From the IMG/VR virus record IMGVR_UViG_3300025383_001098: DNA of 64,000 nt; one strand, given 5' to 3'. The translations under genes were made by a program, and so were the position numbers. Source of the DNA: a virus. The notes under the pieces were generated by a model. That model saw only the letters and a list, made by a program, of their open reading frames with translations, was not told the DNA's origin and searched no databases. Positions within the stretch are counted from its first letter, which is position 1, and the number at the start of each line of letters is the position of its first letter. Of the stretch, positions 1,928 through 19,222 are shown one piece after another.

Positions 1928-2267
1928 TCCCGACCAACAATTACGTGTTCGTCTGGACATAGTTACTCACGGATCTGTACACTATAGGCTCCGTCTCAAT
2001 GGGCATTTAATTTTAGACAATACTGCAGAATTGTATTTGAATTTGTTTGCACCAATACACTTACAATGTACAATTATAGATGCTGTTGGGGATTCGGCAT
2101 TAGAAATCAAAAATTTATCTGTAAATAACTTAGAAGTTCTGCCACGTTATATGCATTGGGCCTCAGAACCCACTTTATGGTTAACCAAAAATGAGTGGCT
2201 GTTCAGTGTTCGAGAACCATTTTATCCTTGGTATCACAAAATTTCTGGACAAGGTTTTATCGCTTGA
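1896..2267 (+). CDS. Hypothetical protein
   Basis: ORF overlapping the end of the rSAM gene; no recognised motif. Confidence 0.6.
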   Translation: MNNFSDITDINPDQQLRVRLDIVTHGSVHYRLRLNGHLILDNTAELYLNLFAPIHLQCTIIDAVGDSALEIKNLSVNNLEVLPRYMHWASEPTLWLTKNEWLFSVREPFYPWYHKISGQGFIA

Positions 2268-2292
2268 CCATAAAATAATATACTGCTATAAT
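2264..2292 (+). promoter_or_regulatory. Sigma70-type early promoter (leaderless uvsE)
   Basis: TTGACC-17 nt-TATAAT with extended -10 TG; ATG at 2299. Confidence 0.8.
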
Positions 2293-2298
2293 AGCGGT

Positions 2299-3369
2299 AT
2301 GACTACATTTACTACTCCACGTATCGGCTTTGCCTGCAAATGGATTGATCGTCCAGACCAAACCGAAGGCATCAAATCTACCGACCCCGCTCGTAAATAC
2401 AATACAGGTACCACTACTGTGGCCTGGTTAAACCGTCAGACACGGGCGATAGCGGAGCAGAAGTTATGGGATTTAATGGTACAAAACATCGAGGCAACAA
2501 GACTCTTAGTGGAGCGAGTCAGTGAACTCCCAGAGTCTCTACGCATGGTGCGTCTTAGCAGTGATATTCTTCCTTGCTATACCCATGGGGACTTTTCTGG
2601 TTATTGGATGGAACCTTCTGTTGTTTCATACGCCGAAACCCACTTTAAGAGAGTGGGAGATATTGCTCGGGCTAACGGCGTTCGCCTTAGTTTCCACCCT
2701 GGGCAGTTTACTGTTCTTGCATCAAGTAATCCTGGGATAGTCAATCGTTCAATAGAGGAGTTTGAATATCATGCAACTATGGCACGTTGGATGGGTTTCG
2801 GAGCCCAATTCCAAGATTGTAAGATTAACGTACACATCTCAGGCCGTGAAGGGCCTGAAGGCATTAGACGTGCCTACAACCGATTGTCACCTGAAGCTCG
2901 TAACTGCATTACCATCGAAAACGAAGAAAACGCCTGGGGGTTAAATGATTGTCTTACCATTTCTGATCTTGTACCTATTGTGCTCGATATTCATCATCAC
3001 TGGATACGTGAGGGAGAATACATCCTACCTGGAGACGACCGTGTTAAACGAGTTATTGATAGTTGGCGTGGTGTTCGTCCTACTTGCCATTATAGCGTTA
3101 GTCGCGAAGACGTACTTGTTGGACATGATACATCCAGGTTACCTGAGCATAAGGCACTTCTGGTAGAAGGTTACAAGAAACAGAGCCTACGTGCTCACAG
3201 TGACTTTTATTGGAATCGTGCAGTTAACGAGTGGGCAATGAGTTTTAATCAAGACTTTGATATCATGTGCGAAAGCAAAGGTAAGAATTTAGCCAGCTTT
3301 GCTTTTGCTAAAAGTAAGACGCAAACGCAGGACGAAAATACTGATCGTACCATGCTGTTGACAGCATAA
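2299..3369 (+). CDS. uvsE: UV damage endonuclease UvsE/UVDE
   Basis: RIGFAC, RLSSDILP, RLSFHPGQF, IENEE, LDIHHH, RAHSD, MCESKGK motifs. Confidence 0.92.
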   Translation: MTTFTTPRIGFACKWIDRPDQTEGIKSTDPARKYNTGTTTVAWLNRQTRAIAEQKLWDLMVQNIEATRLLVERVSELPESLRMVRLSSDILPCYTHGDFSGYWMEPSVVSYAETHFKRVGDIARANGVRLSFHPGQFTVLASSNPGIVNRSIEEFEYHATMARWMGFGAQFQDCKINVHISGREGPEGIRRAYNRLSPEARNCITIENEENAWGLNDCLTISDLVPIVLDIHHHWIREGEYILPGDDRVKRVIDSWRGVRPTCHYSVSREDVLVGHDTSRLPEHKALLVEGYKKQSLRAHSDFYWNRAVNEWAMSFNQDFDIMCESKGKNLASFAFAKSKTQTQDENTDRTMLLTA

Positions 3370-17519: not shown

Positions 17520-17612
17520 ATGTTTACCGCTTTTGCAGTATTGTTGATAGGAAGTGTATTAATTTACATTATGATTGAAGTCAAAGACTGGATCGACAAC
17601 GATCAGCAATAA
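17520..17612 (+). CDS. Small membrane protein (30 aa)
   Basis: Starts immediately after previous stop; one hydrophobic helix. Confidence 0.5.
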   Translation: MFTAFAVLLIGSVLIYIMIEVKDWIDNDQQ

Positions 17613-17738
17613 GTAAACTTTCTGAGTAGCTACAATGGAACACCGAAATACTTGTCAATGTCGACCATGAACAAGGACCGGCCATGAAGAGCAGGGCTAT
17701 CGCGGATTCAAGCGCCACAGAGAGTTTTCTTATTGTTG
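17604..17738 (+). ncRNA. Candidate structured ncRNA 2 (unrecognised)
   Basis: Closing stem 17604-17624/17718-17738 with 20 of 21 pairs; nested TAGC/GCTA, ATGG/CCAT, CTTGT/ACAAG stems. Confidence 0.62.
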
Positions 17739-17739
17739 T

Positions 17740-18060
17740 AATTCCTTTGTAGTGAAGGCATTGTGGACCCGGGTTCGATTCCCGGCATCTCCACCAGAAA
17801 GTGTATTAGCCACTTAATACATAAATGCGGAGTCGTACCGGTACACCTTCCGCGGGTTAGCATAAGGTTCGAAACTTATGTGTTAATACACTTTCTAATG
17901 GGGATGACAAGGTTTCGACATGGTGAGATAGCGAACAAGGCAACACGAGAGGTCAACTCGTAAAAAGCAAAAAAACGTAAACGCAAACGACGAACAGTTC
18001 GCATTAGCGGCCTAAACACCGCTTAGGGCAGGAAATGCCTCGTAACAGAAACAACCAGCC
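17740..18060 (+). ncRNA. ssrA: Circularly permuted (two-piece) tmRNA
   Basis: T-arm CCGGG-TTCGATT-CCCGG and CATCTCC-A-CCA (ends 17796) lie upstream of the 5' end GGGGATG (17900); G3:U70 pair; tag ORF 17983-18015 ANDEQFALAA*; outer ends approximate. Confidence 0.93.
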
Positions 18061-18080
18061 CCTTCGGGGGCTCCACTTTA
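18057..18080 (+). terminator. GC-rich UUCG hairpin at the tmRNA 3' end
   Basis: AGCCCC-TTCG-GGGGCT; weak U-tract. Confidence 0.55.
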
Positions 18081-18088
18081 CAATTTCA

Positions 18089-19222
18089 ATGATCCACTAT
18101 CAAGTCAACAATAAACAGATTTACAATCCGTATCTTGCTTACTACGAAAGTTTTCAGAGTGGAAAGCCTGTACAGTTTTATTGTCACGATGCAGAATATG
18201 ATCAGCTGGATTGGACTCAAGAACCTGCAGAATCGTTTGAAACGTTAATGGATCAACACGCACACCGTCTGCGTGACCGATATGAAAGATTAATTTTAGC
18301 CTGGTCGGGTGGCACTGATAGTCATACTATATATAATGTTTTCAAACGCAATGGTATACATATTGACGAAATTCTGTACAAAATTGATACCAGTCTTTGG
18401 CGTACAACAAATGGTCAGTTAATCCAAGACCCCACCGATCACTTGAATTGGTTAAAGGCAAATCACTGGGATCCAACTACTCGTATCACCAGTTATGATG
18501 AGTATACCACGGATCTTAAAGGCATAGATATTCGCAATGACGAATGGATTTTTCAAAATCGCGGAGATCTTGGAAAATATTTTGCTGTAGGCACTGGCGG
18601 TGAAGCCACTAAGTTTTTATGCGAACGTAATCATGCCGGGCATCATTGGGGACTTGTAGTTGGGTACGAAAAGCCTTTTGTTTTCAAACGCAACGGGTCA
18701 TGGTATTCAAGACAAAGTGATGTTTTATTAAATAGTGTGTTGGGTCAGCCCAACGTTGAATCTTTTTTCCTGGAGCCAATGCTACATTTAAAACAAAGTC
18801 ACCTGGCCAAACGAGTACTGAAACGATTTCAAAATATTGAAAATTCAGAAAACTATGCTACTGTAGTTAACCCAAACGGATTCCCGGGCGGATATAAAAT
18901 ATGGGCTTCGCTATTAGGCCGGCATGATGAGTTGTCCGACGGAATAAGTATCAATGGAAAATTTATTATAACTCATATGAAAGAATTTGCAATAGATTCA
19001 TCTGTTAATATTGGTGATTTGAATAACCATTATGCCGACCCTTCTCTGTTGGGCAGATTGAAAAAGGATAATAAAATTGCTGTAAACTATGTTAAAGGCC
19101 TGTATAATCTTGCAAGCGAACATAGATTTTATGAATTTTTAAATGAAAATTTTTTAGCAGAACCAGGGAAAGTGTTTAAATTAAAAACAACCTGGTCTAA
19201 GGAATACAATCTTGGGGAATAA
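18089..19222 (+). CDS. PP-loop (adenine nucleotide alpha-hydrolase-like) ATPase, paralog A
   Basis: LILAWSGGTDS; DW..EP, LRDRY, NGI.IDEI, G.EKP shared with 22437..23690. Confidence 0.72.
   Translation: MIHYQVNNKQIYNPYLAYYESFQSGKPVQFYCHDAEYDQLDWTQEPAESFETLMDQHAHRLRDRYERLILAWSGGTDSHTIYNVFKRNGIHIDEILYKIDTSLWRTTNGQLIQDPTDHLNWLKANHWDPTTRITSYDEYTTDLKGIDIRNDEWIFQNRGDLGKYFAVGTGGEATKFLCERNHAGHHWGLVVGYEKPFVFKRNGSWYSRQSDVLLNSVLGQPNVESFFLEPMLHLKQSHLAKRVLKRFQNIENSENYATVVNPNGFPGGYKIWASLLGRHDELSDGISINGKFIITHMKEFAIDSSVNIGDLNNHYADPSLLGRLKKDNKIAVNYVKGLYNLASEHRFYEFLNENFLAEPGKVFKLKTTWSKEYNLGE

Follow-up and report, generated by a model that had tools for sequence, protein, structure and literature searches.

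A putative free-standing RNA cassette between the two pieces of a permuted tmRNA gene of an uncultured phage

The 64,000-nt stretch of IMG/VR virus record IMGVR_UViG_3300025383_001098 analysed here (the window) contains a two-piece, circularly permuted transfer-messenger RNA (tmRNA) gene, and the locus raises the question of what the segment between the two pieces is: a linker that is discarded during maturation, or an RNA in its own right. An earlier note, made from the letters alone, described this spacer as long and itself tRNA-like, and suggested that a second, nested tRNA mimic is released from it. Comparison with related phage sequences makes a different answer fairly probable, namely that the spacer belongs to a conserved family of free-standing phage non-coding RNA cassettes, one copy of which occupies the slot between the permuted tmRNA halves, carries self-pairing tips and would be released during tmRNA maturation.

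The source record is 127 kb long, with a CheckV completeness of 35%. ARAGORN identified a circularly permuted tmRNA at 17704-18106, with the tag ANDEQFALAA, and the gene scored 158.8 bits with the Rfam model beta_tmRNA (RF01850) and 145.1 bits with tmRNA_permuted (RF04321), the alignment to the latter starting at 17734. The spacer is an unaligned insert in both Rfam alignments. The acceptor piece ends with ..CUCCACCA, its last base being 17796, and the coding piece begins with GGGGAUGA at 17900, so that the length of 103 nt (17797-17899) noted earlier can be read directly from the CCA and G1 borders; the spacer thus lies between the acceptor CCA and G1 of a gene matching permuted tmRNA models. 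Its minimum free energy is -31.2 kcal/mol, versus -19.3 +/- 2.8 kcal/mol for 200 shuffled sequences (z = -4.25), none of which equalled it, and the minimum free energy fold holds all three helices of the earlier note: the stem, the GCGGA arm and the GCAUAAG hairpin. The features of the locus are listed in Table 1.

Table 1. Features of the permuted tmRNA gene and its intervening segment (positions in the window).
Feature	Position	Strand	Details	Basis
tmRNA acceptor piece	17734..17796	+	3' half of tRNA-like domain, T arm, acceptor 3' strand, CCA	RF04321 and ARAGORN
Intervening segment	17797..17899	+	one copy of the stem-closed RNA module, 103 nt	match to covariance model R1
P1, 5' strand	17797..17808	+	pairs with 17884-17895	sequence and family covariation
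P2, 5' strand	17809..17811	+	GCC, pairs with GGU 17855-17857	RNAalifold consensus
One-sided internal loop	17812..17825	+	ACUUAAUACAUAAA, nearly invariant	
P3 hairpin	17826..17854	+	UGCGGAG (17826-17832) / UUCCGCG (17848-17854), variable tip	
P3 tip	17835..17844	+	self-complementary GUACCGGUAC, core hexamer ACCGGU (17837-17842)	
P4 hairpin	17860..17881	+	GCAUAAG / CUUAUGU, 8-nt loop G-UUCGAA-A (17867-17874)	
P1, 3' strand	17884..17895	+	pairs with 17797-17808	
UAAU	17896..17899	+	4 nt separating P1 from G1 of the coding piece; presumed RNase P leader (predicted cleavage)	
tmRNA coding piece	17900..18075	+	acceptor 5' strand GGGGAUG	
Tag frame	17983-18015	+	ANDEQFALAA and stop, within the coding piece	
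Terminal hairpin of coding piece	18057-18072	+		

Relatives of the spacer were collected from IMG/VR with a pattern consisting of the two halves of the first hairpin, which matched 66 contigs. The upstream block CCACUUAAU..AUA.AUG, absent from the pattern, was found in 57 of them, and a looser pattern enlarged the family to 88 phage loci with 65 unique sequences. The family core, GCC-ACUUAAU..AUA.A-UGCGGAG...CCUUCCGCGGGU, is invariant, part of it being set by construction through the pattern-based sampling; CCACUUAA and AUA.AUG are invariant columns over 42 sequences, though not required by the first search pattern. The architecture was derived with RNAalifold and with R1, a covariance model based on 13 members. 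Running R1 against the loci yielded 58 matches of 33-105 bits, including the copy in the window (17798-17894; 94.1 bits, E ~1e-19), which carries the core CCACUUAA..AUGCGG..CCGCGGGU inside a covarying closing helix together with a second covarying hairpin.

The module appears to be confined almost entirely to uncultured phages. Rfam searches matched only tmRNA fragments in the spacer of the window (E<=10) and only tRNA and tmRNA in 12 related loci (gathering score); no known self-cleaving ribozyme or riboswitch family was matched by the spacer at E<=10. A blastn search of 50,697 GenBank phage records with one family member as the query (E<=10) did not find the module, returning three chance 19-nt matches in Lactococcus phages, and the whole tmRNA region matched only the T-arm stretch of Stenotrophomonas phage tmRNAs. 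Among 185,579 prokaryote species genomes there was one match, in a 1963-bp contig of a metagenome-assembled genome of Bacteroidetes. A full-text literature search found no description of the module, which is apparently an undescribed, conserved small RNA family.

From the 5' end, P1 is followed by P2, a 14-nt loop on the 5' side only and P3 with its variable tip. Two linker nucleotides lead to P4, and 0-4 more connect P4 with the 3' strand of P1. P1 clamps a three-way junction, with P2, the invariant loop, P3 and the tip forming one arm and P4 forming the other. The elements seen earlier by eye are all present. The closing stem, 17797-17810/17882-17895, comprises 14 bp, 13 of them Watson-Crick and one G.U; the arm GCGGA/UCCGC is found as GCGGA(G)/(U)UCCGC, 17827-17832 with 17848-17853; and the hairpin GCAUAAG-GUUCGAAA-CUUAUGU lies at 17860-17881, immediately before the 3' strand. 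One correction concerns the innermost two pairs of the stem, since G17809 and C17810 belong to a separate 3-bp helix with G17855-U17857, and following the family consensus the closing helix proper is 12 bp long in the window.

Base pairs were counted on a model-based alignment of 47 distinct sequences. Standard pairs accounted for 94.8% of the cells, versus 70.3% with shuffled partners and 36-57% with partners slid by 1-3 columns; a model-fitted alignment is biased towards the structure, and the slide and shuffle controls are clear. Changes on both sides were observed in 11/11 modelled pairs of P1, with 98% of cells paired, and in 7/7 modelled pairs of P4. P2 and P3 are essentially invariant, including all seven P3 pairs in this alignment. 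The G.U pair of P2 is replaced by A-U or G-C in single members and, on manual reading of the wider set, the base following P3 forms either G-C or C-G with its partner beyond a 2-nt bulge. Of the first 45 unique members, 42 have a natural closing helix of 10-28 bp. The cells of P1 include about 48 G.U pairs, against about 10 non-pairs. Since these G.U pairs would be C.A mismatches on the opposite strand, the structure is indicated to be selected in RNA, transcribed from this strand.

The presence of a hairpin with GUUCGAAA right before the 3' strand, and the location of the module among tRNA genes, are the features expected of a nested tRNA mimic, in which an acceptor-like stem and a T arm would attract anticodon nucleases or other tRNA-directed enzymes to a decoy. 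Searches for a tRNA gave little: the Rfam tRNA model (RF00005) had no match at E<=10 over 17780-17915, and ARAGORN made no call at its default or 90-95% threshold. At the 80% threshold, a weak tRNA-Gly call appeared in the copy of the window only, with 0/46 other unique members called and shuffled sets producing 0-1 calls each; this call pairs the conserved loop with the 3' strand of P1 and breaks both the invariant P3 and the covarying P1. A T arm has a 5-bp stem and a 7-nt loop with the pattern U-psi-C-purine-A. The loop of P4 comprises 8 nt, is variable and is not kept as a T loop across relatives. Anticodon and D arms are likewise missing, the tip of P3 being 12-16 nt long and a 14-nt one-sided loop standing at the place of the D arm. 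Without an anticodon-like stem-loop, the proposed role as a decoy for anticodon nucleases has no support, and a tRNA mimic of any kind seems highly improbable. The other half of the proposal, a second RNA nested in the tmRNA gene, holds up better: the module recurs free-standing in tRNA arrays and its helices covary, as expected of an RNA in its own right.

The tip of P3 is variable yet mostly self-complementary. Of the first 45 unique members, 41 carry a Watson-Crick palindrome of 6 nt or more in this tip, starting 3-5 nt after GCGGAG, while shuffled tips were palindromic in a mean of 7.5 and a maximum of 18 of 45 (2000 shuffles). In the full set such palindromes occur in 59 of the 65 unique members, with 13-14 different hexamers (UCUAGA, CCUAGG, GUCGAC, ACCGGU, CUCGAG, UCCGGA, CUGCAG, CGUACG, CGCGCG, GCCGGC, CCAUGG, UGUACA and GUGCAC), and the central dinucleotide alternates among UA, CG and GC. 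The window has GUACCGGUAC on P3 (17835-17844), and UUCGAA on P4 (17868-17873) is also self-complementary. Since neighbouring bases of one chain cannot pair together, the covariation of the tips points to pairing between copies, in the form of a kissing loop. The argument that covarying adjacent loop bases imply intermolecular pairing was used by Kretsch et al. for the symmetric kissing loops of the OLE and GOLLD RNAs (PMC12286853).

The loop of P4 is less uniform. Only a subfamily, six of the first 45 unique members, retains the sequence GUUCGAAA (GTTCGAAA). Elsewhere its place is taken by GUUGCAAA, AUUGCAAG, the palindromic tetraloops GCGC, GGCC, CGCG and UGCA, or AGCA. The switch from UUCGAA to UUGCAA retains self-complementarity and breaks the T-loop pattern. 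It is possible, and is proposed here only tentatively from the pattern of loop sequences, that the module is a miniature self-assembling phage RNA that forms tip-to-tip dimers, or closed or chain-like assemblies, and is a counterpart of about 100 nt to the GOLLD and ROOL RNAs considered below. Nested in the tmRNA gene, it would then be made in one copy per tmRNA.

The genomic context of the family indicates that the module is not bound to tmRNA genes. A tmRNA spacer holds it in only 15 of the 65 unique copies, and the host spacers belong to both tmRNA types, beta in the window and alpha in locus L113. Elsewhere, copies directly follow the CCA of a tRNA-Thr, Asp or Glu, adjoin a permuted tmRNA gene on its 5' side or a tmRNA on its 3' side, lie between tRNAs, or have other stem-closed RNAs as neighbours. 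In phages with the module upstream of the tmRNA gene, the spacer is filled by other structured inserts. Thus, covariation and exchange of cassettes among related phages, both of which the earlier note had proposed to look for, do occur. Among 20 contigs with a copy outside a spacer, a permuted tmRNA was found elsewhere in 11-12, and one phage with 96% completeness contains the module and no permuted tmRNA. This context points to phage tRNA/tmRNA biology or takeover of host translation.

An inverted repeat of 12-28 bp surrounding a conserved core, at positions that vary among genomes, could also be expected of selfish DNA, similar to miniature inverted-repeat transposable elements (MITEs), with the closing stem as its terminal inverted repeats. 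The repeats, however, differ between members, and change by compensation with many G.U pairs. Each record searched contained one copy, as did the window and the 127-kb record, and the 14-mer of the stem is not dispersed as a repeat within the window. The tRNA and tmRNA genes within about 700 nt of the module numbered 101 on the same strand and 0 on the opposite one. The compensatory changes and G.U pairs of the stems, the occurrence as one copy and the constant orientation rule out a MITE-like element, whose probability is considered close to nil.

A long stem between the 5' and 3' ends and the location in phage tRNA arrays raise the possibility that the module is a Y-RNA-like partner of the Ro60 (TROVE) protein, built like bacterial and phage YrlA from a long closing stem and an effector module. 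A TROVE gene was detected in 3 of 35 module-bearing contigs (G019, G022 and G025). The one in G019 (contig of L147; 100822-101496), a 112-kb phage with 100% completeness, is a 522-aa Ro60-like open reading frame (ORF) about 7 kb from the tmRNA gene adjoining the module. However, TROVE is also present in 1 of 35 control contigs and missing from three module-bearing phages that are at least 93% complete (G012, G027 and G038). The module matched neither YrlA (RF02553) nor another Rfam family, whether in the spacer at E<=10 or in 12 related loci at the gathering score, and the closing stem covaries freely, with no conserved Ro-binding sequence. A weaker point is that no TROVE or DUF2828 was found in the 127-kb record, itself 35% complete, and no DUF2828 in related near-complete phages, as the DUF2828 search matched no control genome either. 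A Y-RNA-like function is therefore considered very improbable.

How far the properties of this spacer are shared by other phage tmRNA genes was judged from scans of IMG/VR with the same T-arm/acceptor pattern and spacer lengths of 25-54, 55-84 and 85-115 nt, which matched 67, at least 120 and 91 contigs, respectively. Among the matches listed there were 188 unique spacers of 25-115 nt, the bulk being 50-100 nt long. In 144 of these 188 spacers, 8 or more uninterrupted bp close the segment directly after the CCA; the 3' end was UGAU in 144 and UAAU, as in the window, in 6. The spacer of the window, at 103 nt, is long, as the earlier note had it, but not exceptional, since 17 of the 188 reach at least 100 nt. 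With such lengths and closing stems common among the 188, the long stem-closed spacer is a class property of phage two-piece tmRNA genes and not a peculiarity of the window.

The same survey bears on the possibility that the spacer is a disposable processing linker, whose function would reside in the closing helix and the UGAU/UAAU tail alone, as these present the tmRNA ends to RNase P and 3' trimmers, and whose insert would be degraded filler. The closing helix and UGAU end occur at the above frequencies whatever the insert, and inserts are wholly different between related phages, both as expected of a linker. Filler, on the other hand, would keep neither about 30 invariant positions nor two covarying hairpins and a position-fixed palindrome, and it would not recur outside tmRNA genes, still less in a near-complete phage lacking a permuted tmRNA. 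A linker and nothing more is thus unlikely, although among the alternatives it deserves some weight.

The module was carried by one of the 91 loci with long spacers (85-115 nt), L032, and no further copy or divergent relative was found in the other 90. The spacer of L032 has the first hairpin in the same sequence as in the window, while its second hairpin is wholly different in sequence yet still pairs, and the loop differs. Other inserts are recurrent as well: a GGAAUUCC loop is found in one and CUUAGAUGAAAGAAACCUCU...GGGCUCUA in another (spacers L100, L005, L012 and L088; L110, L122 and L155), so that several cassette families occupy the spacer slot.

A cis-acting processing device, either an unrecognised self-cleaving ribozyme or a nuclease docking site that cuts tRNA and tmRNA precursors at the borders of the module, would be consistent with its position, which is always exactly at RNA processing junctions, and with the invariant internal loop, which resembles a catalytic core in kind. 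No Rfam ribozyme family was matched, though, by the spacer or in 12 related loci, and the module is missing from most phage tmRNA spacers and tRNA gaps, as the single occurrence among the long-spacer loci illustrates. The self-complementary tips would also be left unexplained. Such a device is judged quite improbable.

If the spacer is a free-standing cassette, as favoured here, its release could be coupled to that of the tmRNA. Permuted tmRNA transcripts are cut by tRNA-processing enzymes (PMC11915505). The 5' strand of P1 adjoins the CCA of the upstream tRNA-like end, and 4 nt separate its 3' strand from the downstream G1. In tmRNA maturation, RNase P would cut at G17900, behind a leader whose last base is U, and 3' trimming would proceed to the CCA at 17796; the same enzymes would probably free the module, at a length of about 100 nt. 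P1 may stack on the acceptor stem over a 4x4 internal loop, with ACCA opposite UAAU. In relatives, ACCA stands opposite UGAU, with one mismatch only. The stacked P1 and acceptor stem would constitute a near-continuous helix of about 25 bp, probably a substrate for RNase III in the manner of rRNA processing stalks. Phage genes for RNase III and SmpB were not found in the record of the window or in related near-complete phages. The freed RNA is predicted, from the covariation of the tips, to pair with a second copy via the P3 tip, and in the subfamily of the window the UUCGAA loop of P4 would pair too, so that a homodimer or some larger assembly would form. A binding site for a protein, RNA or ligand is most likely provided by the invariant internal loop together with P2 and P3.

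Several observations weigh against this interpretation. The invariance of P2 and P3 owes partly to the search patterns. The closing helix of the window, 12-14 bp, is short for RNase III unless it is stacked on the acceptor stem. The second contact is not universal, as the P4 loop is the non-palindromic AGCA in 13 of the first 45 unique members, and the 10-nt palindrome of the window could fold back on itself with 3 bp and a CCGG loop. Clustering of the ORFs of 58 module and 90 control loci revealed no neighbouring protein family in more than 16 of the 58 module loci. Finally, the phage is uncultured and the module was not found in GenBank phages.

The surroundings of the gene contain further RNA-like elements. 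Two more structured RNAs are located on the same strand 5' of the tmRNA, at 17071-17227 (z = -5.3) and 17604-17738 (z = -3.4). Each is closed by a stem of about 20 bp, and neither matches R1 or Rfam. The second borders on the acceptor piece at its 5' end, which is where the CCACUUAAU module lies in related phages. The best match of the region to a sigma-70-like promoter, TTGACT-17-TATAAT (11/12), was found at 16600-16628 of the window and may drive the ORF at 16636-17040 and the whole RNA array downstream.

Some spacers of other phage permuted tmRNAs have a coding capacity. A hydrophobic peptide of 24-31 aa with a ribosome-binding site is encoded in about 11 of 63 unique long spacers (L011, L020, L028, L033, L035, L036, L040, L052, L073, L080 and L092). 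In most cases the terminal UGAU supplies the UGA stop codon, and similarity between the peptides persists where the DNA has diverged. A comparable 30-aa hydrophobic ORF (MFTAFAVLLIGSVLIYIMIEVKDWIDNDQQ) of the window lies at 17520-17612, just upstream of the tmRNA region and outside the spacer. Locus L093 contains two permuted-tmRNA matches, at 2951-3156 (-) and 2127-2328 (-). The module-bearing match covers model positions 3-131 only, with 58 bits and an implausible tag, and may represent a mini-tmRNA consisting of the tRNA-like domain alone.

New in this analysis are the definition of the core and fold of the family and its self-pairing tips. On the reading favoured here, the "discarded" spacer of phage two-piece tmRNA genes is a slot for independent RNA cassettes, which also move through tRNA arrays, and an annotation that ends at 'tmRNA' consequently misses a gene.

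Two-piece permuted tmRNA genes with an intervening sequence (IVS) were reported by Keiler, Shapiro and Williams (2000), as cited in PMC9004378. The IVS is missing from the mature tmRNA, having been removed by tRNA-processing enzymes, and known IVS cargo includes an intact tRNA-Ala gene and a repetitive element (PMC11915505). The spacer of the window shares with these its location between the acceptor CCA and the coding G1. Unlike them, it belongs to an RNA family that is found also outside tmRNA genes, with an invariant core of its own and self-pairing loops.

Among phage RNAs, species 1 and 2 of T4 (rnaC and rnaD), whose function is unknown (PMC3014915), are likewise small RNAs of about 120-140 nt that adjoin genes of the T4 tRNA cluster in the same orientation. 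Homology was rejected, as R1 had no match on T4 69500-74500 and the folds differ: rnaC has a genuine T arm, CCGGGUUCGAAUCCCGG, and in the T4 RNAs there is neither a long closing helix nor the invariant core. The likeness is one of position only.

Phages and prophages also encode GOLLD and ROOL, in many cases close to tRNA islands and with a function that is unknown. GOLLD, ROOL and OLE are homo-oligomeric RNAs, and in OLE and GOLLD symmetric kissing-loop palindromes covary at adjacent positions (PMC12286853). These RNAs, of 500-800+ nt, are unrelated in sequence and fold to the module, which is about 100 nt long and for which oligomerisation is only predicted. Neither GOLLD (RF01998) nor ROOL (RF03087) was matched in the window or in 12 related loci at the gathering score. 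The tips also resemble the dimerisation initiation site of human immunodeficiency virus type 1, a 6-nt loop palindrome (GCGCGC or GUGCAC) with flanking unpaired purines that is variable among lineages yet self-complementary. That site differs in organism, context and function, which is genome dimerisation for packaging. Compact, strongly covarying, about 100 nt in length and present almost only in uncultured phages, the family described here is a small and simple member of the RNAs of phage tRNA islands, and could offer an easier biochemical and structural entry to the group that includes T4 species 1 and 2, GOLLD and ROOL.

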